DNA from: Candidatus Woesearchaeota archaeon
Lineage (GTDB): Archaea > Nanobdellota > Nanobdellia > Pacearchaeales > GW2011-AR1
Assembly: GCA_964462045.1 (NCBI GenBank)
Contig: CAYWWB010000005.1
Location: 1 to 36,437 of the forward strand
DNA length: 36,437 nucleotides
Direction: 5' to 3'
A program made the position numbers and the translations under genes. Under the pieces are notes generated by a model. It saw only the letters and a list, made by a program, of their open reading frames with translations, searched no databases and was not told where the DNA came from. This document shows positions 1,659-28,328 of the stretch, piece after piece. Numbering within the stretch: position 1 is the stretch's first letter; the number at the start of each line of letters is the position of its first letter.

Positions 1659-1696
1659 TCATACTCCAAAAAATAAATCGGAGGAAATAAACTAAA

Positions 1697-4946: not shown

Positions 4947-5094
4947 ATTAAAAAAAAACATATGAATTATATAAATCTTATTAAATATAAAAATAGAAAA
5001 AATCAAACGTTCCCCGAATCAGGCCTCACTCACTTCGTTTGTTCAACTTATTTCGTATTTCTAACAAGTGAAGAAGAAATCCAAAATAAACCTT

Positions 5095-5149
5095 GTTCGA
5101 TTCTCCTTCTTTTTGTTGAATAGGATAACCGCCCCCGCCCCGAATCGAA
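5095..5149 (-). repeat. 55-bp direct repeat, copy A (orphan tRNA-Ser 3' fragment plus the same 35 bp)
   Basis: Perfect copy of 5229-5283 at a 134-bp offset. It lacks the 5' strand of the T stem and everything upstream, so it is not a functional tRNA. Confidence 0.95.
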
Positions 5150-5228
5150 TAAAAAGTTTCCGAAAAAGAGGAAGTTTTTAATTCGCCCGTATTTCCTTAC
5201 ATAGATGCGGAAATCCAGACGAAACCCA

Positions 5229-5283
5229 GTTCGATTCTCCTTCTTTTTGTTGAATAGGATAACCGCCCCCGCCCCGAATCGAA
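5229..5283 (-). repeat. 55-bp direct repeat, copy B (last 20 nt of tRNA-Ser plus 35 bp downstream)
   Basis: gttcgattctccttctttttgttgaataggataaccgcccccgccccgaatcgaa, identical to 5095-5149. Confidence 0.95.
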
Positions 5284-5344
5284 CGGGGATGCCCCGAAGG
5301 GCCTCGGTCTCAAGCCGAGTGCAATACCATTATGCGACGGAGGC
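5264..5344 (-). tRNA. tRNA-Ser (anticodon UGA), class II with long variable arm, no encoded CCA
   Basis: Hand-folded on the minus strand. Acceptor GCCUCCG/CGGGGGC (one G-U pair). Anticodon stem CUCGG/CCGAG with loop CUUGAGA. Variable arm CCC-UUCG-GGG. T arm CCCCG-UUCGAUU-CGGGG. Discriminator G. It is a GC-rich island in AT-rich DNA. Confidence 0.85.
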
Positions 5345-11955: not shown

Positions 11956-12348
11956 ATGGAACATAAAAAAGAATTTACATATAGAGGAAAGAATATTGAA
12001 GAATTAAAAAAACTTAGTTTGAAAGAGTTTGCAGACTTGTTAGTCTCAAGACAAAGAAGAACTCTTTTAAGGAATCTTCAGGAAACACAAAAATTTATTG
12101 AAAGAATAAAAAATAAAGAAAAGAAAAATAAAAGGATTAAAACCCATAAAAGAAATGTTGTTATTGTTCCAGAATTAGTTGGAAAAGAAATTAATGTATA
12201 TAAGGGGAATGGTTTTGGACAAATTAAAATTACAGAAAAAATGTTGGGACACAAATTAGGAGAATTTGCACTAACAAGAACAAGAGTCAACCATGGAAGT
12301 GCAGGAGTGGGTGCAACCAAAGGAAGTAAACATAAATCAATGAAATAA
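11956..12348 (+). CDS. rps19: 30S ribosomal protein uS19
   Basis: 130 aa. Motif GHKLGEFALTRT. Conserved position after uL2. Confidence 0.95.
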   Translation: MEHKKEFTYRGKNIEELKKLSLKEFADLLVSRQRRTLLRNLQETQKFIERIKNKEKKNKRIKTHKRNVVIVPELVGKEINVYKGNGFGQIKITEKMLGHKLGEFALTRTRVNHGSAGVGATKGSKHKSMK

Positions 12349-12349
12349 A

Positions 12350-12433
12350 ATGACAGAAGAAAATTCAAAAAATTTGAAAGAAATTTTTAGTTTGTTCGCT
12401 TTTCCAAATAAGGAAAATCAAATAAATCAATGA
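12350..12433 (+). CDS. Micro-ORF 1 (27 aa, MTEENSKNLKEIFSLFAFPNKENQINQ) inside repeat cassette copy 1
   Basis: Its ATG lies 1 nt after the uS19 stop. It reads through the cassette in the same frame as micro-ORFs 2 and 3. Translation is unproven. Confidence 0.4.
   Translation: MTEENSKNLKEIFSLFAFPNKENQINQ
12366..12422 (+). repeat. Intergenic repeat cassette, copy 1 (uS19|uL22 junction)
   Basis: The 46-nt core caaaaaatttgaaagaaatttttagtttgttcgcttttccaaataa is identical to copy 2. There is a 7-nt deletion relative to copies 2 and 3, then the shared ggaaaatcaaa. Confidence 0.9.
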
Positions 12434-12439
12434 AATAAA

Positions 12440-13126
12440 ATGACAGAAGAAAAACAAAACAAAACAACTGAAGAAAAGAAAAAACCAAATGAAAAGAAAG
12501 AAGAAACAAAAAAAATAGTTAAAACTCAAGAAAAACAAAATCCAGAAAAAACTAAGGCAAAGAAAACTGAAAATAAAGAGGAGAAAAAACCAGAAATTAA
12601 AAAAGAAAAAACTAAAGAAAGGGAAAATAAGGAAACAAAAAAGGAATCTTCACAAGAAAAAAAAGAAGAGAAAAAACCAGTAACAAAAACTCAAGAAAAA
12701 GTTACAGAAAAAAAAGAATATGCTGTTGTTAATGGGAAAAATCTTCCAATTTCAACAAAACAGGCAGTTGCAATTTGTAAATTTATTGTAAAGAAAAAAA
12801 TACCTCAAGCAATAAAAGATTTAGAAGAAGTTGTCAAAATGAAAAAAGCAGTTCCAATGAAAGGTGAAATAGCCCACAAAAAAGGGAAAGGAATGATGTC
12901 AGGAAAATATCCTGTCAAAGCTTCAAAAATTTTCATTAGATTATTAAAAAATCTCGGAGGCAACACAATTACAAACAATTTAGATAACCCTATAATTTCG
13001 GAAGCTATTGCTAATCAAGCATCAAGACCAATGGCAAAATTTGGGAGATGGGAAAGAAAAAGAACACATGTCAAAATAATTGCAAAAGATAAAAAACAAA
13101 ACAAGGAGAATAAAAAACAAAAATGA
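12440..13126 (+). CDS. rpl22: 50S ribosomal protein uL22 with ~95-aa Lys/Glu-rich N-terminal extension
   Basis: 228 aa. The C-terminal ~130 aa are L22-like (AVAICKFI..., GRWERKRTHV). The N-terminus is low-complexity K/E/T. Confidence 0.92.
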   Translation: MTEEKQNKTTEEKKKPNEKKEETKKIVKTQEKQNPEKTKAKKTENKEEKKPEIKKEKTKERENKETKKESSQEKKEEKKPVTKTQEKVTEKKEYAVVNGKNLPISTKQAVAICKFIVKKKIPQAIKDLEEVVKMKKAVPMKGEIAHKKGKGMMSGKYPVKASKIFIRLLKNLGGNTITNNLDNPIISEAIANQASRPMAKFGRWERKRTHVKIIAKDKKQNKENKKQK

Positions 13127-13176
13127 AAACAAAAATAAATTTTTTCATCCAATCAAATAAGGAGGAATTTTATTAG
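13123..13176 (+). CDS. Micro-ORF (17 aa, MKTKINFFIQSNKEEFY) in the uL22|uS3 spacer
   Basis: Its ATG overlaps the uL22 stop (ATGA). Its TAG lies 1 nt before the uS3 ATG. The spacer resembles the 3' half of the cassette (ttttc..caaataaggagg). Confidence 0.3.
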   Translation: MKTKINFFIQSNKEEFY

Positions 13177-13177
13177 A

Positions 13178-13915
13178 ATGGAAGAAAGAAAATCAGTTAA
13201 ATTAAAGAAAGATGAGTTTGCTATTAAAGAATATGTTAAAAGAAATTTAGGAAAAGGGAAAGCAAGCAAGGTTACTATTGAATATACCCCTGTAGGAGAG
13301 AAGATAGTTGTATCAACAAGTCGTCCAGGTTTGGTTATTGGTAGGGGGGGAGAAAAAATAGATGAATTGACAAGAGTTTTGAAAAAAGAATTTAAGTTAG
13401 GAAATCCAAAAATAGAAATAGACCAAATACAAGAACCAGAATTTGACGCTCAGTTAATGGCAGATAGTATTGCTCTTGCTTTGGAAAAAAAAGGCCCACT
13501 AAAATTCAAAGTTATTGCATATAGAACCCTTCAAAAAATCATGGATACAGGGGCATTAGGAGTAGAAATAAGATTAAGTGGTAAACTTCCTAGCTCAAGG
13601 GCTAAGAGTTGGAGATTTGCTCAAGGATACCTAAAAAAAACAGGAGAAACAAAAGGGATTGTAGATAAAGCGCAATCAATCGCCCAAACAAGACCGGGAA
13701 CTGTGGGAGTAAAAGTAAGTATTATCTCACCTCATGTCAAACTTTTAGATAGAATAAATATTGATGAAGAATTAATTAAAAAATTAAAAGAAAATTCAAA
13801 AGAAAAAGAACCTGAAGAAGAAAAAACAACAAGCAGAACTAAAGGTTCTACCTCGCCTGCTAAAAATGTCGGACGAAAGAAAAAATCAACTAAAAAACAA
13901 GAAAATAAAAAATGA
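13178..13915 (+). CDS. rps3: 30S ribosomal protein uS3
   Basis: 245 aa. KH-domain motif GRGGEKIDEL. Has a K/E-rich C-terminal tail. Confidence 0.95.
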   Translation: MEERKSVKLKKDEFAIKEYVKRNLGKGKASKVTIEYTPVGEKIVVSTSRPGLVIGRGGEKIDELTRVLKKEFKLGNPKIEIDQIQEPEFDAQLMADSIALALEKKGPLKFKVIAYRTLQKIMDTGALGVEIRLSGKLPSSRAKSWRFAQGYLKKTGETKGIVDKAQSIAQTRPGTVGVKVSIISPHVKLLDRINIDEELIKKLKENSKEKEPEEEKTTSRTKGSTSPAKNVGRKKKSTKKQENKK

Positions 13916-14001
13916 AAATCAAAGAAAATTCAAAAAATTTGAAAGAAATTTTTAGTTTGTTCGCTTTTCCAAATAAAAATGGAGGAAAATCAAACAAATG
14001 A
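13912..14001 (+). CDS. Micro-ORF 2 (29 aa, MKIKENSKNLKEIFSLFAFPNKNGGKSNK) inside cassette copy 2
   Basis: ATGA overlap with the uS3 stop at its 5' end and ATGA overlap with the uL29 start at its 3' end. Confidence 0.4.
   Translation: MKIKENSKNLKEIFSLFAFPNKNGGKSNK
13931..13997 (+). repeat. Intergenic repeat cassette, copy 2 (uS3|uL29 junction)
   Basis: 67 nt, identical to copy 3 except for one base (g/c). Contains agaaatttttag and a GGAGG about 12 nt before the uL29 ATG. Confidence 0.92.
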
Positions 14002-14180
14002 AAACCAAAGAAATAAGAGAAATGAAAAAAGAAGAAAGAGATAAAAAAATGAAAGAATTAAAAATGGAATTAATCAAATCAGGAGCAAGTGATCAAAATT
14101 CAAACTCAAAGAAAAAAGAAATTAAAAAAACAATTGCTAAGATACTTACCATAAATAAATCAGAGGAGGAAAAAAAATAG
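13998..14180 (+). CDS. rpl29: 50S ribosomal protein uL29
   Basis: 60 aa. MKTKEIREMKKEERDKKMKELKMEL is a typical L29 helix. Conserved position after uS3. Confidence 0.92.
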   Translation: MKTKEIREMKKEERDKKMKELKMELIKSGASDQNSNSKKKEIKKTIAKILTINKSEEEKK

Positions 14181-14484: not shown

Positions 14485-14823
14485 ATGACTGAAGAAAAAC
14501 AAACAAAGAAAAACAATAAAGAAGAACTAGCTAAAGCCCTAAAAAAAGATAAAATAAGTACAAGAGGGAAAACTTTCCAAGGTAAAGTTATAAGAAAATT
14601 CTATAAAAGAATAACTATAGAATTTGAAAGAATGATTTATGTTAAAAAATATGAAAGGTATATGAAATCTCGAACAAAAATACATGCAAGACTTCCTGAA
14701 GAATTTGAAAAAGAAGTTAATGTGGGGGATTTAGTAAAGATTCAAGAATGTAGGCCATTGAGTAAAATTGTTCACTTTGTATTCCTAGAAAAACTAAAAG
14801 ATGCCTCAGAGGTAACACAATAA
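14485..14823 (+). CDS. rps17: 30S ribosomal protein uS17
   Basis: The track ORF starts at 14455 inside SUI1. An in-frame ATG at 14485, 1 nt after the SUI1 stop, is the likely start (MTEEKQTKK...). S17 core: GKVIRKFYKRITIEFE...VKIQECRPLSK. Confidence 0.92.
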   Translation: MTEEKQTKKNNKEELAKALKKDKISTRGKTFQGKVIRKFYKRITIEFERMIYVKKYERYMKSRTKIHARLPEEFEKEVNVGDLVKIQECRPLSKIVHFVFLEKLKDASEVTQ

Positions 14824-14824
14824 A

Positions 14825-14911
14825 ATGAAATCAATAAATACAAAAAATTTCAAAGAAATTTTTAGTTTGTTCGCTTTTCCAAATAAAAATGGAGGAAAAT
14901 CAAACAAATGA
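14825..14911 (+). CDS. Micro-ORF 3 (28 aa, MKSINTKNFKEIFSLFAFPNKNGGKSNK) inside cassette copy 3
   Basis: Its ATG lies 1 nt after the uS17 stop. Its TGA overlaps the uL14 ATG (ATGA). Confidence 0.4.
   Translation: MKSINTKNFKEIFSLFAFPNKNGGKSNK
14841..14907 (+). repeat. Intergenic repeat cassette, copy 3 (uS17|uL14 junction)
   Basis: 67 nt, identical to copy 2 apart from one base. Confidence 0.92.
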
Positions 14912-15309
14912 AATCAGTAAATGCAAGGACAACAGCAGGATTAAACTTAGGAGCAAAAGTTTTTGCTATAGATAATAGTGGAGCAAAAATGGTTAAAATA
15001 GTTTCAGTTAAAGGAGGAAAAGGAACAAAAGGTAAACAAGGAAAAGCAAAAGTAGCAGATCAGGTTAAAGTAGCTGTTAAAAAAGGTAAACCTGATGTAA
15101 AGGGAAAAGTTTTTCCTGCGATTGTTTTAAGACAAAAAAGACCCTACAGAAGATTAAATGGGGAAGTGGTTTCATTTGAAGATAATGCAGTAGCATTATT
15201 AAAAGATGAAAAAGGAAATCCTAAAGGAACACAAATTAAAGGAGTAATAGCTAGAGAGGTTCAAGAAAGATGGCCTCAAGTTGCTAAAATAGCTAATATA
15301 GTTTATTAA
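14908..15309 (+). CDS. rpl14: 50S ribosomal protein uL14
   Basis: 133 aa. L14-like sequence and conserved position. Confidence 0.95.
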   Translation: MKSVNARTTAGLNLGAKVFAIDNSGAKMVKIVSVKGGKGTKGKQGKAKVADQVKVAVKKGKPDVKGKVFPAIVLRQKRPYRRLNGEVVSFEDNAVALLKDEKGNPKGTQIKGVIAREVQERWPQVAKIANIVY

Positions 15310-21216: not shown

Positions 21217-21549
21217 TTATTTTTTATTTCTGTAGATGAATTCTGTTGAGTCTATTACATAATCTTTGTTTTTGTCTAATTCGTGGAATTGTTTTCTGTA
21301 AAAATTTTGTTGATGGGGGGTTTTTTCTAATTTTTGTTCTCTTTGAAATTCCCTTACATTTTCTTTCCATTTCCAAGGATTAAAACCATGATTTAAAGCC
21401 ATAACAAAATAACCTATAACTATTGTACTTCCAATCATTGTAGAAACAAAATTATTTGCTCCTTGTTTTGATGAGAATCTTTTATTGTATTTTGGATTAC
21501 AACTTAAGAAAGGAACATATTGTAATGTTTCCAGTTTTTGTTTTTTCAT
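21217..21549 (-). CDS. Hypothetical single-TM protein with C-terminal EF-hand-like loop (third gene of a 3-gene operon)
   Basis: 110 aa from the ATG at 21549, 1 nt after the upstream stop; the track start 21576 overlaps the upstream gene. TM segment FVSTMIGSTIVIGYFVMAL. Loop DKNKDYVIDSTE at 21241-21276. Confidence 0.6.
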   Translation of the reverse strand: MKKQKLETLQYVPFLSCNPKYNKRFSSKQGANNFVSTMIGSTIVIGYFVMALNHGFNPWKWKENVREFQREQKLEKTPHQQNFYRKQFHELDKNKDYVIDSTEFIYRNKK

Positions 21550-21550
21550 T

Positions 21551-22174
21551 TTACTTTTTCTCCTTGTTTTGTTCAATAGTCTTATTTACAAAATAATCTT
21601 TATAGTGATGTTCAATAAATGAATCTGCATTCTCGCATGCATTATATAATGTTTTAAATTCGTCAAAGCCATTGTCTCTTGGGAATAAAGGGGGTTTAAT
21701 AAGAGTACGATAACCTAAAAAACCAGCCCCTATTGTCAGAGGGATTCCAATAGAAGGGTTTTTTAAAGAATAAATTGCTCCTGCTCCAGTACCAACCATA
21801 CATCCTAAATGAAGGAGGGTTCCAGCAAGTCTACCAGGCCAAGATTTTTTAAATGATTTATAGCCCCCTCTAACAGAATTATATTTTAATTGGTCTTTGT
21901 CTAAATCTCTTTCCAAATAAGAAAAAGGATTAACTATATTTATGAGTTCTAAAGGAGTTTCATTGAAATTTTCTTTGCCTTGTTTTTCAAAATAATAATT
22001 TTTATAGGGGCCCAACCTAGTAAAATGAGTTTCAACATTTTTTACATCATAAAAATCCCTGCATTCGTTTGTAAATTTATTTGTTCCTAAAAGAGCCTCT
22101 TGAACTAGAGGAGAATTTTCATATTTTTCAATGTGATTTATGTGTTTTTGGATTTTTGATTCTTTGTCTTTCAT
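21551..22174 (-). CDS. Hypothetical protein with Gly-rich two-TM hairpin (second gene of the operon)
   Basis: 207 aa from the ATG at 22174 (MKDKESK), 1 nt after the upstream stop. Gly-zipper-like hydrophobic stretch LAGTLLHLGCMVGTGAGAIYS...IGIPLTIGAGFLGY. No family recognised. Confidence 0.6.
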   Translation of the reverse strand: MKDKESKIQKHINHIEKYENSPLVQEALLGTNKFTNECRDFYDVKNVETHFTRLGPYKNYYFEKQGKENFNETPLELINIVNPFSYLERDLDKDQLKYNSVRGGYKSFKKSWPGRLAGTLLHLGCMVGTGAGAIYSLKNPSIGIPLTIGAGFLGYRTLIKPPLFPRDNGFDEFKTLYNACENADSFIEHHYKDYFVNKTIEQNKEKK

Positions 22175-22175
22175 T

Positions 22176-22538
22176 TTATTTTTTCTCCTTGTAGAATTTA
22201 GATTTTTGATATGCTTCCCGATATCTTGTTTTTTCTTTTTCTGTTGCTTGTTGAATTGATACAAAACCATTTATAGGAAATTTCACTCCGACATAATCCA
22301 ATTCTCCATTTCCCAAAATATCTAACCCGGAAGATCCAAAAAGAAGATTATATTTAATATCTCCTTTGTTAATATTTACACTCTTATAATTAAAAGAGCA
22401 ACTTTCAGGAGAATCATCTCCAAATCTTTTTGAAGTTTCTCCTACATATTTTGTTAATAAAATAGGGAGTCCTCTAGAGAAGATTATTTGCCTTTCAGTT
22501 TCCTTCTCTAATTTTGATTTTTTATTTGCCATTTTCAT
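22176..22538 (-). CDS. Hypothetical small soluble protein (first gene of the operon)
   Basis: 120-aa ORF with normal composition. Divergent from the Lrp-type regulator across a 98-bp spacer. No family recognised. Confidence 0.55.
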   Translation of the reverse strand: MKMANKKSKLEKETERQIIFSRGLPILLTKYVGETSKRFGDDSPESCSFNYKSVNINKGDIKYNLLFGSSGLDILGNGELDYVGVKFPINGFVSIQQATEKEKTRYREAYQKSKFYKEKK

Positions 22539-22636
22539 TACTTTATAATAATTACTAATTTAGATTATATAAAACCTTTTTCTATATTTTTTACATAATC
22601 GCAATATTTATATAAGATATTTTCATTAATGTTAAT

Positions 22637-23593
22637 ATGAATAAAAAAGATGAAAAAATACTCAGGGAGCTTATCTTAAACTCTAGAATTCCTTTAAATC
22701 AACTTGCTAAGAAAGTTGGAGTTTCTCGGGAGGTTGCTACGTATAGATTAAATAATTTAATTAAAGAAAAATTAATCTTGGGTTTTTATACAATAATTGA
22801 TGTTGAGGCATTGGGTTTTGAAAGATATGCTTGTTTCTTTGAATTAAAAGGGGTTTCACATAAACAAGAAAAAGAATTTATGGATTATCTTAAGAAAAAT
22901 GAATTTGTAACTTATATGGGCCCTGTTATTGGAAGATGGAACATAATCTTTGATATCTATGCAAGAGATAAAAAACATCTACAAAAAATTCTTAATGAAA
23001 TTGTAGATAAAATTGAAAAGAATTTAGAAACATATTCGGTTGTTCCAATGGGAAATTCATTAGAAAGTTTTCCAATTAAAATTTTTAGCTCTAAACAAGA
23101 GGCAAAATATAAAGAATCTAAAAAAATTAGTTTGGATAAAAAAGATTTGAAAATTTTAAAATTACTTTCAAATAATTCAAGAATAGAATACAAAGAGATT
23201 TCTGAAAAATTAAATTTAAGTGCAAATGCTATTAAATATAGAATTAAAAATTTAGAAAATTCTGGAATTATTAAGGGTTATACTATTTCAGTAGATAAGA
23301 AAAAATTAGGTTTTGAATTTTATAATTTACAATTGAAAATAAAGGAATACAAAAGAGAACAGGCATTGAAAAATTTTGTGAGAAATAACAAACATTCAAT
23401 TTATTTGTATAAATATACTGGAAATGAAAATTGGGATTTAGATATTGGTTTAATTGTTAAAAACTCTGAAGAATTAAGGAATTTTATTTTAGAATTAAGA
23501 GAAGAATTTGGAGATATAATTAAGATTCATGATTTGTATGTCGTGGTTGAAGAAACAAAGGGAGATTATGCACCTGAAGGGGTTTTTCAATAA
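22637..23593 (+). CDS. Lrp/AsnC-family transcription regulator, tandem (two HTH + two RAM-like domains in one chain)
   Basis: 318 aa. Residues ~5-60 (DEKILRELILNSRIPLNQLAKKVGVSREVATYRLNNL) and ~165-220 (DKKDLKILKLLSNNSRIEYKEISEKLNLSANAIKYRIKNL) are both AsnC-type HTHs. Each is followed by a beta-alpha-beta effector-like domain. Confidence 0.8.
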   Translation: MNKKDEKILRELILNSRIPLNQLAKKVGVSREVATYRLNNLIKEKLILGFYTIIDVEALGFERYACFFELKGVSHKQEKEFMDYLKKNEFVTYMGPVIGRWNIIFDIYARDKKHLQKILNEIVDKIEKNLETYSVVPMGNSLESFPIKIFSSKQEAKYKESKKISLDKKDLKILKLLSNNSRIEYKEISEKLNLSANAIKYRIKNLENSGIIKGYTISVDKKKLGFEFYNLQLKIKEYKREQALKNFVRNNKHSIYLYKYTGNENWDLDIGLIVKNSEELRNFILELREEFGDIIKIHDLYVVVEETKGDYAPEGVFQ

Positions 23594-23632
23594 TTTTATA
23601 AGCACAAAATATCTTATATTTTAGAGGTGAAA

Positions 23633-24286
23633 ATGGAAGTTTTAATTTTTTTACAAGAAGTTTTTAAATTCATGTGGAAGATTTTGATTACTCCTTGGTT
23701 AAGTTCTGATGGTTTGTGGGCTATTTTGCCCTTAGTTTTAATTTTGATTTTTATTAATTTCTATTTTGGAAGAAATCGTGCAGAAGAACTTGGATGGAAT
23801 TCTGCTTTTGGAAATACAATTTCTTTGTTATGGGTTTGTGTTATACTTTGGAAATTTTTAATTACAAACCACACATCAGTTGAAATTTTTAGTCATCCTC
23901 TTGTAAGAGATTTTATTTTACTTAGTATTCTTAGTCTATGGGTAATATTACTCTCTGTTTTTAATTTCTTTCATGTCTTACCAAGAAAATTTGCATTTAT
24001 TATTTCCTCGTCATATTCTCTTTATATCTTAGGATATATTGTAATCTCATTTGTTATTGGAGGGGTTGTTATAACAAAAACATCTCTTTTAGGAGCAATA
24101 ATCTTATTTTTTCTAATGTTTCTTTTATTGCAATTCATAAAATGGATGGTTCCAATAGATCCCACTGATAAACCTGTACTTGAAAAAAGAAAGAAAAAAA
24201 AGAACAGAAAAAAGGGAGCAAAAAAAGCTGCTAAAACTAGGAAAAGAAAAAATATTTTTAGAAAGATTTTTGGGAAAAAGGAATAA
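23633..24286 (+). CDS. Hypothetical polytopic membrane protein with poly-Lys/Arg C-terminal tail
   Basis: About 5 hydrophobic segments. GAGGTGA lies before the ATG at 23633; the track uses GTG at 23627. No family recognised. Confidence 0.6.
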   Translation: MEVLIFLQEVFKFMWKILITPWLSSDGLWAILPLVLILIFINFYFGRNRAEELGWNSAFGNTISLLWVCVILWKFLITNHTSVEIFSHPLVRDFILLSILSLWVILLSVFNFFHVLPRKFAFIISSSYSLYILGYIVISFVIGGVVITKTSLLGAIILFFLMFLLLQFIKWMVPIDPTDKPVLEKRKKKKNRKKGAKKAAKTRKRKNIFRKIFGKKE

Positions 24287-24291
24287 CTTTT

Positions 24292-25149
24292 TTATTTTTT
24301 ATTTTTTTTATGTTTGTGTTTTTTAACAAACCACCTTATAATTAAAAATAAAACAACTACTCCTAGTAAATAAACCCACCAAGAAATTTCTTTTCCATTT
24401 TCTTGAGTTTTTTCAAAATATTTTGGATTAAATTCGATTGTTTTATTCAAACTTCTTCTTTCATTTATCTCGTCAGTGTAATTTATGTGTAAAGTAATAT
24501 CTCCTTCAAAAGCTTCAGCAGTATAAGTAAACTCTGTTTCTTCATTGTTATCTAAAGAACCAACAATTTCTTTAGGAGACTGATGTAAAATAAAATTTTC
24601 TTGTTCAGGAATTTCAATTGTTAGTGCCTCAATATCATATTCTCCTGTATTTAATATTTCAAAAGTAATTTCATGATTTGATTGGGAAAATTCTTTAACA
24701 TGAATTTCAAAATCTACTTTCACGTCTTCTATTTTTATGTCAAACTTTTTTGAAAGAGAAAAATCTTTGAATGAACTTCCTTGACTAAATCTTGCTTCAA
24801 TTTGATTAAACCCATCTATTGCATTTTTATCAACTCTCAATTTATATGGAATCATCCAGGTTTTTTTATAATCATTTACATAAGTAGAACCAGGTAAAAT
24901 TTCTAAAGCACTTTCTCCTTTATCTAATGAAAAAGGATACTGAGGAATTAATTCAAAAACAGCTCCATTGCAATTAGAATTTTGCAATCCACTTAATTGA
25001 AAAACAACTTCAACATATTCTCCTGGAACAGCAGGATAAGGGTCTTGATTTACTAGAGAAGCATTTAAATCACAGGTAGTAGTTCCTGCAGAAACTAAAC
25101 TCATAAAAAACAAACTTGCTAAAACAAAAATAAAAAAATTTTTACTCAT
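24292..25149 (-). CDS. Secreted, C-terminally anchored surface protein (CARDB / COG1361 S-layer-domain-like, tentative)
   Basis: 285 aa. Signal peptide MSKNFFIFVLASLFFMSLVSA, a beta-rich body, a C-terminal TM segment (WWVYLLGVVVLFLII) and a basic tail. It is divergently adjacent to a MacB-type ABC transporter, a pairing common in archaea. Confidence 0.5.
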   Translation of the reverse strand: MSKNFFIFVLASLFFMSLVSAGTTTCDLNASLVNQDPYPAVPGEYVEVVFQLSGLQNSNCNGAVFELIPQYPFSLDKGESALEILPGSTYVNDYKKTWMIPYKLRVDKNAIDGFNQIEARFSQGSSFKDFSLSKKFDIKIEDVKVDFEIHVKEFSQSNHEITFEILNTGEYDIEALTIEIPEQENFILHQSPKEIVGSLDNNEETEFTYTAEAFEGDITLHINYTDEINERRSLNKTIEFNPKYFEKTQENGKEISWWVYLLGVVVLFLIIRWFVKKHKHKKNKK

Positions 25150-25217
25150 CCTCTTTTAGTTAAATTTATAACTTTAATTATTTTAAATAAATAAAAGAGG
25201 TTTTTAAAGTTTATTAA

Positions 25218-25907
25218 ATGGAAAAAGAAATCATAAAACTCAAATCTGTGCATAAACATTATCGTATGGGAAATAATATTGTTAAAGCTGTTGATGGGAT
25301 AAATATTACAATTGAAAAAGGAAAATTTGTTTCAGTTATGGGTCCTTCTGGAAGTGGAAAAAGTACAACAATGAATTTGATTGGAAGTTTAGATATTCCC
25401 ACTAAAGGTAAAATTTATCTTGATGGAAAAGATATTTCTGAATTAAGTGAATCTCAATTAGCACAAATAAGGGGAAAGAAAATAGGATTTATTTTTCAAC
25501 AATTTAATTTAATTCCTAATTTAACTGCAAAAGAAAATATAATGCTTCCCATGGTATTTCAAGATAAAGAATATTCTCAAAGAAACAAAAGAGCAAAAGA
25601 ATTGCTAAAATTAGTTGAATTAGAAGATAGAGGAAATCACCTTCCCCAAGAACTTTCAGGAGGACAACAACAAAGAGTCGCTATAGCCAGAAGTCTTGCA
25701 AATGATCCTGAAGTTATTTTAGCAGATGAACCAACCGGAAATTTAGATACAAAAACAGGTGAAATTGTTCTGGATTTTTTGAAAAAATTAAAGAAAAAAG
25801 GTAAAACAATAATAATGGTTACACATGATGCAAATCTTGCTGAAGAATATTCTGATGTGGTTCATTATCTTATTGATGGAAAAATCAAAAAAACAAATGG
25901 AAAATGA
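25218..25907 (+). CDS. ABC transporter ATP-binding protein (MacB/LolD-type, COG1136)
   Basis: 229 aa. Walker A GPSGSGKST, signature LSGGQQQRVAIARSL, Walker B ILADEPT. Confidence 0.92.
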   Translation: MEKEIIKLKSVHKHYRMGNNIVKAVDGINITIEKGKFVSVMGPSGSGKSTTMNLIGSLDIPTKGKIYLDGKDISELSESQLAQIRGKKIGFIFQQFNLIPNLTAKENIMLPMVFQDKEYSQRNKRAKELLKLVELEDRGNHLPQELSGGQQQRVAIARSLANDPEVILADEPTGNLDTKTGEIVLDFLKKLKKKGKTIIMVTHDANLAEEYSDVVHYLIDGKIKKTNGK

Positions 25908-25913
25908 TTCAAG

Positions 25914-27122
25914 ATGGTAAATTATCTTTTAATAGCTACAAAAAATTTGAAAAAAAGAGGTATTAGAAGTTGGCTAACCCTATTAGGAATTTTTATTGGA
26001 ATTATGGCTGTTGTTTCTTTAATAACTCTTGGAAGTGGGTTAAAGGCAGCTGTTAGTTCTCAATTTGGAGTTAGTTCTACTCAATTAATTTCTGTTCAGG
26101 CAGGAGGTTTATCTTATGGCCCTCCCGGAACCGGAATAACAAATCCTTTAACAGAAGAAGATGTAGAAGCGATTGAAAAAATAAATGAAGTGGAATTAGC
26201 AATACCAAGAAATATTGAAACTTTGAAAGTAAGTTACAATGATAAAACAAATTATATTACAGCTACTTCTATTCCTGTTGAAAATAGAAAAGAATTCTAT
26301 GAAATTTTAGATATAGAAATAGAAAAAGGAAAGTTTTTAGAAAAAGAAGAACAAGGGGAAGTTCTTTTGGGATATAGTTATTCTAAAAAAGATAATGAAT
26401 TTCAAAAACCTTTTGAAATTGGAAAAGATATAGAAATAAATGAAAAAAATTTTGAAATTAAAGGGATTTTGAAGAAGAAAGGAAGCTTTATTTTTGACAA
26501 TGCTTTTTTTCTGGATTATGATGATTTAAATGATTTAATAGGGAATGGGGAGGATGTTGATATTATTTCAGTTAAAGTTAAAGATAAAGAATTAATTGAT
26601 AAAGCAAAAAAAGAAATTGAAGATTTGTTGAGAGATAGAAGAGATGTGGATAAAGGGGAAGAAGATTTTGAAGTAAACACCCCTGAAGCGAGTTTAGAAC
26701 AAATAAATAGAATACTTAATGGAATTCAAGCTTTTATTGTAATTGTTGCATTAATATCTATTATTGTGGGGGCTATTGGAATTATTAATACTATGACTAC
26801 TTCTGTTTTAGAAAGGACAAGAGAGATTGGAATTATGAAAGCTATTGGTGCCAGAAATAATCATATTTTTAATCAATTTTTATTGGAATCTGGATTGCTT
26901 GGATTAATTGGAGGGGTATTTGGTACTCTTTTTGGAATCTTAATTGGTTTTGCAGGAATATCTGGAATAAACAATTTTATAGGATCAGAAGTTCAAATGA
27001 ATTTTAATTTAATCTTAATTTTTTCCTCACTTGCAGGAAGTTTCTTAATTGGGGCTATATCCGGAATTGTTCCAGCAAATAAAGCAGCTAAAAAAAATCC
27101 AGTGGAGGCATTGAGGGGATAA
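25914..27122 (+). CDS. ABC transporter permease, FtsX/MacB-type with large extracytoplasmic domain
   Basis: 402 aa. An N-terminal TM, a ~230-aa external domain and a C-terminal FtsX-like 3-TM bundle (REIGIMKAIGARN). Confidence 0.88.
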   Translation: MVNYLLIATKNLKKRGIRSWLTLLGIFIGIMAVVSLITLGSGLKAAVSSQFGVSSTQLISVQAGGLSYGPPGTGITNPLTEEDVEAIEKINEVELAIPRNIETLKVSYNDKTNYITATSIPVENRKEFYEILDIEIEKGKFLEKEEQGEVLLGYSYSKKDNEFQKPFEIGKDIEINEKNFEIKGILKKKGSFIFDNAFFLDYDDLNDLIGNGEDVDIISVKVKDKELIDKAKKEIEDLLRDRRDVDKGEEDFEVNTPEASLEQINRILNGIQAFIVIVALISIIVGAIGIINTMTTSVLERTREIGIMKAIGARNNHIFNQFLLESGLLGLIGGVFGTLFGILIGFAGISGINNFIGSEVQMNFNLILIFSSLAGSFLIGAISGIVPANKAAKKNPVEALRG

Positions 27123-28328
27123 ATGGCATCTAGAGATTTATATAAATACCCTTTGAAAAATTTAAAAGAAAGAAAGTCGAGAAGTTTATTGACAATAGTT
27201 TCAATTTTATTTGGGATAACAACAATTTTTATTTTTGTAAGTTTTGGGCAAGGGCTTTATGATTATATTGATGAGATGACTTCAAGTTCTACTGCAAATA
27301 AAATAATAATTCAAGCCAAAGGTATGGGGGCTCCTGGAACAAGTGATTTTAAATTATCTGAAGATGATGTAGAAGTTATAGATAAAACTACTGGAGTTTA
27401 TGAAGCAACAGGAGTTTACATGAAACCCGCAGAAATAAGGCAAAATGGAAATTTAAGATATGTCTATCTCACAGGGTATAATCCTAACAAACCATTAATA
27501 AAAGAATTATTTAATGTTGAAATAATAAAAGGAAGAGATTTGCAAAAAGGTGATAAGGGTAAAGTTGTTCTAGGTTATAATTATCTTATAGAAGATAAAA
27601 TATTTGAAAACTCTTATGAAATAAATGATAGAGTAGAAATTCAAGGGGAAAAATTAAAAGTTTTAGGATTTTATGATTCTATTGGAAATCCTCAAGATGA
27701 TTCAAATATTTATGTTACAGAAAAGACTCTTGAAAAATTATATTCAAATGAAAACATCTCCTATGCTTGGATAATTGCAAAAGTAGATATGAATAATTTA
27801 GAACAAATTATTGAAAAAGTTAAGGATAATTTAAGAGATGAAAGAAATCTTGAAGAGGGAGAAGAAGATTTTTTTATTCAATCTTATCAAGATATGATTG
27901 AAAGTTATACTCAAGCTTTAGACATTGTTATTATTTTTGTGATTTTAATTGCATTAATATCGATTGTTGTTTCAGCAATAAATACTGCAAACACAATGAT
28001 AACTTCAATATTAGAAAGATTTAAGGAAATAGGAATTATGAAAGCTATTGGTGCTAAAAATAGTTCAATCTTTAAAATTTTCTTGTTTGAATCAAGTGTT
28101 TTAGGACTTATTGCTGGAAGTTTGGGGGTTGGTTTAGGTTTTGTGTTAACTCTTCTTGCTAAAACAATTCTTAATTCATTAGGCTGGGGATTTTTGTCTC
28201 CACACTACTCTCCTGCATTATTTTTAGGTTGTATTGGATTTGCTGTTATTACTGGAGCTATATCAGGGGTTCTTCCTGCAAGAAAAGCCTCAAAAATAAA
28301 TCCTGTTGATGCTTTAAGATATGAATAA
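27123..28328 (+). CDS. ABC transporter permease, FtsX/MacB-type (paralogue of the preceding gene)
   Basis: 401 aa. Same architecture as the preceding gene (KEIGIMKAIGAKN). Starts immediately after the previous stop. Confidence 0.88.
   Translation: MASRDLYKYPLKNLKERKSRSLLTIVSILFGITTIFIFVSFGQGLYDYIDEMTSSSTANKIIIQAKGMGAPGTSDFKLSEDDVEVIDKTTGVYEATGVYMKPAEIRQNGNLRYVYLTGYNPNKPLIKELFNVEIIKGRDLQKGDKGKVVLGYNYLIEDKIFENSYEINDRVEIQGEKLKVLGFYDSIGNPQDDSNIYVTEKTLEKLYSNENISYAWIIAKVDMNNLEQIIEKVKDNLRDERNLEEGEEDFFIQSYQDMIESYTQALDIVIIFVILIALISIVVSAINTANTMITSILERFKEIGIMKAIGAKNSSIFKIFLFESSVLGLIAGSLGVGLGFVLTLLAKTILNSLGWGFLSPHYSPALFLGCIGFAVITGAISGVLPARKASKINPVDALRYE

Follow-up and report, generated by a model that had tools for sequence, protein, structure and literature searches.

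Cassettes with duplicated gene starts in a Pacearchaeota-like ribosomal operon: candidate translational couplers copied between gene junctions

The locus raises the question of why some genes of a compact archaeal operon begin twice, once before and once behind a short insert, and of what placed and kept the inserts there. The window, which is the whole stretch of 36,437 nt analysed here, is AT-rich and contains an archaeal S10-spc-type ribosomal operon with the gene order uL3-uL4-uL23-uL2-uS19-uL22-uS3-uL29-SUI1-uS17-uL14-uL24-eS4-uL5-uS14-uS8-uL6-eL32-eL19-uL18-uS5-uL30-uL15. A represents 49% of the operon coding strand. Gene names were assigned via Pfam matches on identical or near-identical genes in the loci L017 and L018, and the nearest named relatives of uS3 and uL24 carry the label Candidatus Pacearchaeota (DPANN group). 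Except at four long spacers, neighbouring genes overlap by 1–4 nt (in one case 23 nt) or are separated by 0–8 nt, usually in the form ATGA or TAAaATG. The first genes in the window mostly have a TATA-like box about 23–30 nt before the ATG and lack a Shine-Dalgarno motif, which suggests leaderless mRNAs.

The reading favoured here, with a probability of roughly 55% and drawn from comparison of sequences, is that the cassette is a non-autonomous repeat that is copied from junction to junction and kept as a natural "translational coupler". In this view, copying runs within the compact S10-spc operon of a Pacearchaeota-like lineage of narrow extent. Repeats of small size within operons are known already, as is coupling via short ORFs; the locus adds the anatomy of the cassettes, their presence/absence polymorphism, their recent copying within one genome, and a rule by which micro-ORFs bridge long spacers.

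Three cassettes with open micro-ORFs

uS19/uL22 junction: All features of the cassettes lie on the forward strand. The left 32-nt direct repeat (12332..12363) comprises the uS19 end and stop, followed by the ATG and 11 bases that open micro-ORF 1. The identical right repeat (12422..12453) contains the restored junction and the functional uL22 start, with its ATG at 12440. The two are separated by the 58-nt body of copy 1 (12364..12421). Micro-ORF 1 (MTEENSKNLKEIFSLFAFPNKENQINQ and a stop; 12350..12433) opens 2 nt past the uS19 stop. Its own stop codon lies 7 nt short of the uL22 ATG and itself forms an ATGA with a duplicated ATG-AAA-TAA.

uS3/uL29 junction: The left repeat (13911..13927) matches the right repeat (13997..14013) at 16 of 17 positions, and the latter carries the functional uL29 start with its ATG at 13998. 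Micro-ORF 2 (MKIKENSKNLKEIFSLFAFPNKNGGKSNK and a stop; 13912..14001) is joined to both neighbours by ATGA overlaps, its ATG to the uS3 stop and its stop to the uL29 ATG. The 3′ hairpin of copy 2 (13950..14004) has the arms TTTTAGTTTGTTCGCTTTTCC and GGAAAATCAAACAAATGAAAA, and pairs both the uL29 AUG and a GGAGG (13981-13985) located 12 nt before the uL29 ATG.

uS17/uL14 junction: The left repeat (14824..14843) and the right repeat (14907..14926), which has the functional uL14 start with its ATG at 14908, agree at 18 of 20 positions; both mismatches are A in the micro-ORF head and G in uL14. Micro-ORF 3 (MKSINTKNFKEIFSLFAFPNKNGGKSNK and a stop; 14825..14911) starts 2 nt past the uS17 stop and ends in an overlap with the uL14 ATG. 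The 3′ hairpin (14861..14913) sequesters a GGAGG (14891-14895) and the uL14 AUG.

These three repeat pairs had been described in the initial annotation, including the composition of the 32-mer as the last uS19 codons and stop with the uL22 ATG and first four codons, and all of them are reproduced exactly. Across the 36 kb of the window, 17-mer pairs that differ at no more than one position and lie 60–120 nt apart number only four; three of these bracket the cassettes, and the remaining one falls in the low-complexity N-terminal tail of uL22. Such pairs average 0.13 in first-order Markov simulations, and the flanking repeats thus exceed chance. The possibility that the duplications are an assembly artefact is extremely improbable. 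Every junction is reproduced in Logan unitigs of three separate runs of one study, with about 2–3x depth on the shared core, which indicates that the structure is real. Independent assemblies from other samples agree with it, L018 having the same cassette family and L027-L030 a homologous one. The window sequence is present in three DNA runs only, all from that one study, and none of the RNA runs searched contains it.

The cassette comprises about 60 conserved bases and extends over 83–95 bases from ATG to ATG, and is thus a repeat of roughly 85 bases. An identical 35-mer from its core occurs exactly three times in the window, where no occurrence is expected. Copy 1 at 12357-12411 is identical to copy 2 at 13922-13976 over 55 bases, which contain the 7-nt AAGAAAA that is also common to the uL22 start. 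Copy 3 at 14852-14913 is identical to copy 2 at 13942-14003 over 62 bases. The identity among the window's own copies is 97–100%.

The main regularity escaped the initial annotation: each copy forms one open micro-ORF, by which the upstream stop is connected to the downstream start. In every copy (three in the window and three in L018) the micro-ORF has 27–32 codons. It begins where the downstream gene begins at uninterrupted junctions, i.e., at -3 (ATGA) or +2 (TAAaATG) from the upstream stop. In five of the six family copies, its stop and the restored start overlap as ATGA, and copy 1 stops 7 nt short. The copies differ in length by 3 nt, 12 nt, and net 6 nt, all of which leave the frame open. 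The head of 4–10 codons resembles the 5′ end of the gene that follows, as had been noted earlier; compared with the 22 operon genes, the own downstream gene ranks first in all six copies, with one tie. Heads are likewise copied from the target in the L027 uL22/uS3 micro-ORF and in a 56-aa ORF of L018.

The body of the cassette contains an A/T hairpin and then a second, imperfect hairpin of 20–21 nt, both of which are retained despite a 12-nt insertion that falls in a loop. The AUG of the next gene lies within the 3′ arm of the second hairpin, and the GGAGG upstream of it is also paired in the minimum-free-energy fold. The Shine-Dalgarno-like motif (GGAGG, or GAGG in L018 uS3/uL29) lies 7–12 nt upstream of the start codon; no more than AAGGA is present in copy 1. 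Its pairing probability is 0.57–0.97 in six copies, five of the window family and the homologous L027 copy. The spacing of 12 nt between GGAGG and ATG is longer than the classical Shine-Dalgarno spacing, and uL10/P1 in the same genome is spaced alike.

The peptides are only loosely conserved between copies, and a protein search with the concatenated peptides gave no match at E <= 10. Some conserved DNA motifs of the cassette occupy different frames in the homologous L027 cassette, which points to maintenance of the open frame and the RNA features and not of the peptide. A search of the whole window against Rfam gave no family at its gathering score, ribosomal-protein leaders and sRNAs included, and ARAGORN and Rfam found nothing at the cassettes. 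Other origins were discarded. The T5 runs were rejected as terminators, as 13 such runs occur in the operon coding strand. A C/D-box sRNA, a bulge-helix-bulge intron, and a tRNA-like origin were rejected by eye, since the defining boxes or structures are absent. Local tandem duplication of the downstream 5′ region was rejected because one body precedes different genes without having a match in the coding sequence of any of them.

Filled and empty junctions in relatives

Contigs of relatives were collected via uS3 and uL24 homologues. They comprise three roughly equidistant close lineages, namely the window, L018 (Logan, SRR33304592), and L019/L020/L032, with a uL14 nucleotide identity of about 88% among them. 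L019, L020, and L032 are 98% identical to each other. The ribosomal genes of the window and L018 agree at 87% of all positions and at 74% of third codon positions.

The uS19/uL22 junction is filled in the window and empty in L018, the sole relative that covers it. The uS3/uL29 junction is filled in the window and L018, and empty in L019, L020, and L032. The uS17/uL14 junction is filled in the window only, and is empty in L018, L019, L020, and L032. The uL14/uL24 and uL30/uL15 junctions are filled in L018 only. The L019/L020/L032 lineage has no cassette at any junction covered, from uS3/uL29 through uL18/uS5. Alignment with these insert-lacking relatives, as the initial annotation had advised, finds a single junction copy at every empty site in L018, L019, L020, and L032. 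Together with the differing occupancy, including junctions filled in L018 alone, this indicates that the cassettes are insertions and that the duplications arose with them. The picture of gain and loss rests on the three close lineages, and recombination between flanking repeats, i.e., cassette loss, would leave identical empty sites.

The proposal that the insertions differ in age is in line with the perfect 32-nt repeat, which occurs at a junction that is empty in L018 and would mark the youngest copy. The 55–62 identical bases shared by the copies, against 87% identity of genes and 74% at third positions, indicate that copying in the window genome is recent. The 97–100% identity between copies far exceeds that of genes, so that copying or homogenisation in the window genome postdates the separation of the lineages.

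Older, non-mobile elements could yield part of this pattern. The cassettes would then be ancient regulatory leaders (attenuators or autoregulatory r-protein sites) that gene conversion homogenises and recombination between flanking repeats deletes. The uL22/uS3 spacer fits such a history: it contains a 17-codon micro-ORF (MKTKINFFIQSNKEEFY and a stop; 13123..13176) whose start overlaps the uL22 stop as ATGA and whose stop precedes the uS3 ATG by 1 nt. L018, L019, and L027 share this micro-ORF, which is older and fixed in at least four lineages. The cassette bodies of the window and L018 are 85–91% identical, above the 74% of third codon positions. A homologous cassette is found at eL19/uL18 in the distant L027 lineage, and the hairpins survive the 12-nt loop insertion. 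In contrast, the occupied junctions differ almost wholly among three equidistant lineages, one of which has no cassette from uS3/uL29 through uL18/uS5. The heads are taken from whichever gene sits downstream, and Rfam gives no match. The perfect 32-nt repeat and the bodies identical over 55–62 nt call for very recent copying of the repeat itself, beyond the body alone. Ancient leaders are therefore rather unlikely. The idea merits respect, and domestication and mobility are compatible.

Cassettes unrelated to the window family occur in other Pacearchaeota operons and obey the same plan. L024-L026 have a cassette family of the form MKIKNN..GVRI and a stop at uL5/uS14, uS14/uS8, and eL32/eL19. 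L027-L030 contain a homologue of the window cassette at eL19/uL18, and scaffold L030 has the filled and the empty allele of this cassette side by side. At uS17/uL14, L021 and L022 contain two tandem micro-ORFs, and the repeat there is perfect over at least 34 nt; slippage would yield such a double cassette. Larger ORFs, with 56, 92, and 110 codons, are found at such junctions as well. The ORF of 110 codons is present in L027 and missing in L030, and is flanked by ATGA only.

A spacer of at least 35 nt was counted as bridged when an ORF starts at -3..+8 from the upstream stop and ends at -10..+3 from the downstream ATG. Across five Pacearchaeota operons, 13 of 17 such spacers are bridged, compared to 1.15 expected from shuffled spacers, and four are unbridged. 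Such ORFs were also sought on opposite strands and elsewhere in the window, and none was found there.

Exact and degenerate core scans of GTDB representative genomes and JGI metagenome contigs gave chance matches, with no similarity past the pattern, and the element is therefore rare. An nhmmer profile run on the window and the fetched loci found no further convincing copy save a degenerate one at L018 uL30/uL15 and the homologous L027-L030 copies. Weak nhmmer matches lie near 5150 and 7740 of the window. Two more cassette-like pieces, partly readable and without the ATGAAA-type head, occur on other contigs of the same metagenomes.

Probable copying at gene starts

The direct repeats that flank the window family are 32, 17, 20, 17, about 8, and about 25 nt long, and those of related families have 8–13 nt or ATGA alone. 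Further copies without a long duplication, which by the initial annotation's own yardstick speak against its view, do occur in part: L018 uL14/uL24 has only AAATGAAA, and the L024 family has essentially none. The registers relative to the ATG are -18..+14, -1..+16, -2..+19, -11..+6, and -2..+6, and the duplicated stretch always includes the ATG. An inverted-repeat search of all three window copies found only a pair of neighbouring hairpins inside the element; its outer ends lack complementarity, and terminal inverted repeats are absent.

An enzyme-moved element, the idea put first in the initial annotation, would provide another explanation for the repeats. A miniature element mobilised by a transposase, integrase, or casposase would leave true target-site duplications from very wide staggered cuts, and direct repeats around an insert that is polymorphic among relatives are what such an element produces. 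Multiple copies and small size are typical of MITEs (PMC10969869). MITEs are defined by terminal inverted repeats of about 4–30 bp, a fixed target duplication set by a transposase, and a related autonomous element. The cassettes have neither the inverted termini, as only the two internal hairpins are present, nor a fixed duplication length, as the repeats vary from 8 to 32 nt and shift in register around the ATG. A casposon has a Cas1-type integrase, terminal inverted repeats, and a constant duplication of 14–15 bp. Within the window there is no Cas1-type or tyrosine/serine integrase, no inverted terminus, and no constant duplication, and the ORFs of its 36 kb include no transposase, integrase, or Cas1-like gene. 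The larger unrelated ORFs of sister lineages at the same ATGA junctions repeat ATGA alone, which points to selection on the junction and not to the geometry of an enzyme cut. The variable length, the lack of terminal inverted repeats, and the lack of a recombinase in the window argue against a fixed staggered cut, and a miniature element of this kind is distinctly unlikely. A trans-acting enzyme encoded outside the window is possible as the mover. Of the two mechanisms put forward earlier, the widely staggered cut by an integrase or casposase-like enzyme does not fit the varying length, and recombination or template switching at gene starts does.

The cassettes resemble MITEs and other small repeats (ERIC/RU, REP/BIME, RUP, Correia, and Rickettsia palindromic elements) in being short, multi-copy, hairpin-forming, of non-coding size, and located between operon genes. 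Some small intergenic repeats also carry open frames and are tolerated within genes (PMC2759123; PMC10969869). They differ in that the cassettes lack terminal inverted repeats and a fixed short target duplication, and in that every readable cassette is located exactly at a start codon, with a frame that is open and phased with both neighbours.

The junctions of copy 1 suggest how a copied repeat may have arrived. At the left junction, the 7-nt AAGAAAA is common to the donor-like copy 2 and the uL22 target, and at the right junction microhomology is limited to 1–2 nt. In the youngest copy, a segment of copy 2 would have been attached to the start of uL22 at AAGAAAA, and copying would have re-entered the target 32 nt further upstream. 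The DNA step would thus be copy-choice (template switching) or short-homology recombination across A-rich gene starts, with no cut by a transposase. The insertion would land a few codons inside the downstream gene and re-create the gene start behind the insert, so that a variable stretch around the ATG would be present twice. Selection would retain only translationally transparent insertions, and the strong regularity of the products makes selection the best explanation. FoSTeS/MMBIR template switching is similar in having a donor segment, a target duplication of variable length, and short homology at the junction, here 7 nt (AAGAAAA), and the tandem copy in L021 is also in line with it. In contrast, FoSTeS/MMBIR is known mainly from eukaryotic and bacterial rearrangements, and the process proposed here is the recurrent spreading of a defined cassette.

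A possible coupler role

In the favoured reading of a copied cassette kept as a coupler, the old start opens a micro-ORF of 27–32 codons that would be read through the cassette. Ribosomes that end the upstream gene would reinitiate on the micro-ORF, melt the hairpin that masks the GGAGG and the next AUG, terminate there, and reinitiate on the gene. The masking would make the downstream start depend on passage through the micro-ORF. In Haloferax and E. coli, termination-reinitiation coupling is nearly lost when genes lie about 20 nt apart (PMC10666635), and an untranslated insert of 85 nt would therefore uncouple the rest of the operon. The architecture is that of a coupler: the stop of a short ORF overlaps or abuts the downstream start, as it also does in the other Pacearchaeota cassettes, and the downstream Shine-Dalgarno motif is contained in the short ORF and masked by the predicted structure. 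As the peptide is poorly conserved and has no database relatives, translation of the micro-ORF is argued from the conservation of the frame, with the bridging excess of 13 of 17 spacers as further indirect support, and both translation and coupling are probable on these grounds. The sample is small, and function and mechanism are read from the sequences.

An internal promoter is a different role that the cassette body might have. The A/T-rich AAATAAAAAT at -27..-18 would then be the TATA box of a mobile promoter that drives a near-leaderless downstream transcript, and it lies at a distance similar to that of the TATA-like boxes of the first genes (about 23–30 nt). However, this stretch lacks the TTTA core of the other promoters, and the conserved GGAGG would lie upstream of such a transcript start and would hence be useless. 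The open frame, the ATGA ends, and the head duplication are left unexplained, and a promoter role is very unlikely.

The duplicated codons also recall programmed translational bypassing, in which ribosomes "hop" between matching sites. T4 gene 60 and the mitochondrial "byp" elements have identical take-off and landing codons around a hairpin-containing gap, and the same arrangement is found here. In contrast, the would-be take-off site is not followed by a stop or a rare codon, the frame is open up to the ATGA, and the downstream gene is equipped with an ATG and a GGAGG of its own. Bypassing is as improbable as the assembly artefact.

The coupler reading has a counterpart among engineered sequences, the original synthetic bicistronic design (BCD) being a short leader cistron that acts as a coupler. 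In such two-cistron couplers, the coding sequence of the leader cistron holds the Shine-Dalgarno motif of the next gene, and the leader stop overlaps the next start; the ribosome unwinds the structure and a second initiation follows (PMC5995908; bioRxiv 10.1101/2023.02.09.527918). The cassette ORF likewise holds the Shine-Dalgarno-like motif of the next gene and has a stop that overlaps the next start. Unlike the synthetic couplers, the cassettes are natural, repeated, and located inside an operon instead of at its 5′ end. They would be fed by termination-reinitiation from upstream, and they carry the first codons of the target gene. The uninterrupted junctions of the operon resemble the ATGA/TGATG overlaps of termination-reinitiation coupling in archaea and bacteria (Huber et al. 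2019, 2023), and the micro-ORFs repeat the -4 or +1 geometry of these junctions at both ends. Those studies concern pairs of full-length genes, whereas the cassettes would represent a relay by micro-ORFs. A relay via a repeated, recently inserted micro-ORF was not found in the literature on coupling that was searched, nor were repeats that carry the start codon of their target and relay coupling inside an essential operon.

A wider generalisation is possible, and is put forward tentatively. Pacearchaeota, and perhaps other DPANN, may carry undescribed self-copying coupler cassettes, enzyme-less or mobilised in trans, that home to the start codons of chained genes, duplicate the start, and persist in essential operons by relaying terminating ribosomes. 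If true, the cassettes would provide natural evidence that termination-reinitiation chains limit insertions into archaeal operons, and would represent a route by which repeats enter the most conserved operon of a cell harmlessly. They would also be ready-made natural coupler modules from an uncultivated lineage with a reduced genome, and might act as adjustable valves for the stoichiometry of ribosomal proteins. Some cassettes may in time turn into fixed parts of the operon, such as the uL22/uS3 micro-ORF. For annotation, the micro-ORFs fall under gene-calling thresholds, and the repeats break short-read assemblies inside the marker-gene operon of DPANN phylogenomics. The pattern of presence and absence could act as a strain-level marker.

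Inserted ORFs at ribosomal gene starts in relatives

At L018, the locus of a close relative (Logan, SRR33304592), the uL30|uL15 junction (a bar separates neighbouring operon genes) carries, at 14723-14957, a 56-codon ORF followed by a degenerate cassette micro-ORF. The 56-codon ORF has no Pfam match, and its opening 17 nt are a copy of the ancestral start of uL15 (14/17 against uL15 of the window). The degenerate micro-ORF on its 3' side also copies the uL15 start, in this case exactly over 17 nt. The presence of this copy in both ORFs points to two serial insertions at the single start codon of uL15.

Unknown ORFs wedged amid ribosomal genes occur in the operons of other relatives, with 110 codons in L027 (4855-5187), 92 codons in L024 (758-1036), and 81 codons in L031 (1586-1831). 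The L027 ORF has an ATGA overlap at each end and is missing from L030, another ribosomal-operon locus. At L030 9715-9869, a single scaffold comprises an eL19|uL18 junction filled with a cassette, ten Ns, and the same junction empty. Both eL19|uL18 alleles were probably present in the sample behind L030.

Cassettes at contig ends

Logan contigs of the window genome end exactly at cassettes: the end of contig L017 corresponds to window 12361, and other ends lie at window 13951/13974 and 14881. This coincidence indicates that cassette repeats fragment short-read assemblies within the ribosomal marker operon. Two additional cassette-like pieces (30/32 and 33/36 matches) were found at the ends of other contigs in X1-X3, the three metagenome runs of one study whose Logan unitigs reproduce the window cassette junctions. 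The contigs concerned measure 3287/3049/3868 nt and 2170/9099/2167 nt in X1-X3, and their depth equals that of the window genome. The left flanks of the pieces are ...TTCGCGAAATTGCTCGGACTC and ...GAAGATTATAGGGATTTATG, neither of which is an ATGAAA-type head.

Initiation signals in the window

The uL10|P1 spacer (window 1659-1696) matches the cassette-tail module, with CUCC, an A-rich loop, GGAGG, and 12 nt to the ATG, but is not bridged by an ORF. Possibly, this module is the standard internal initiation region of the genome. Most first genes in the window (upstream of 22637, 28367, 30692, 32177, 35102, and others) combine the lack of a Shine-Dalgarno sequence with TTTAAA/TTTATA-type boxes ~23-30 nt 5' of the ATG. 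Together, these two features suggest mostly leaderless mRNAs.

Other variable regions

The uL22 protein has a Lys/Glu-rich N-terminal extension of ~90 residues (window 12456-12700) with internal repeats of ~87-105 nt, and the length of uL22 varies from 228 aa in the window to 213 in L018 and 198-206 in other relatives. A ~7-kb block (window 21217-28328) separates uL15 from SecY; in the relatives' loci L021/L022, SecY is directly adjacent to uL15 on its 3' side. The block comprises three unknown minus-strand ORFs, an Lrp/AsnC regulator, two more unknown ORFs, and a MacB-type ABC transporter.

Near tRNA-Ser(tga) (window 5264-5344, minus strand), a 96-nt segment containing the 3' terminal 20 nt of the tRNA has a second copy 134 nt away (5054-5149 and 5188-5283, 84% identical). 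The repeat resembles either the att-type scar left by an integrated element or a duplication of local origin.
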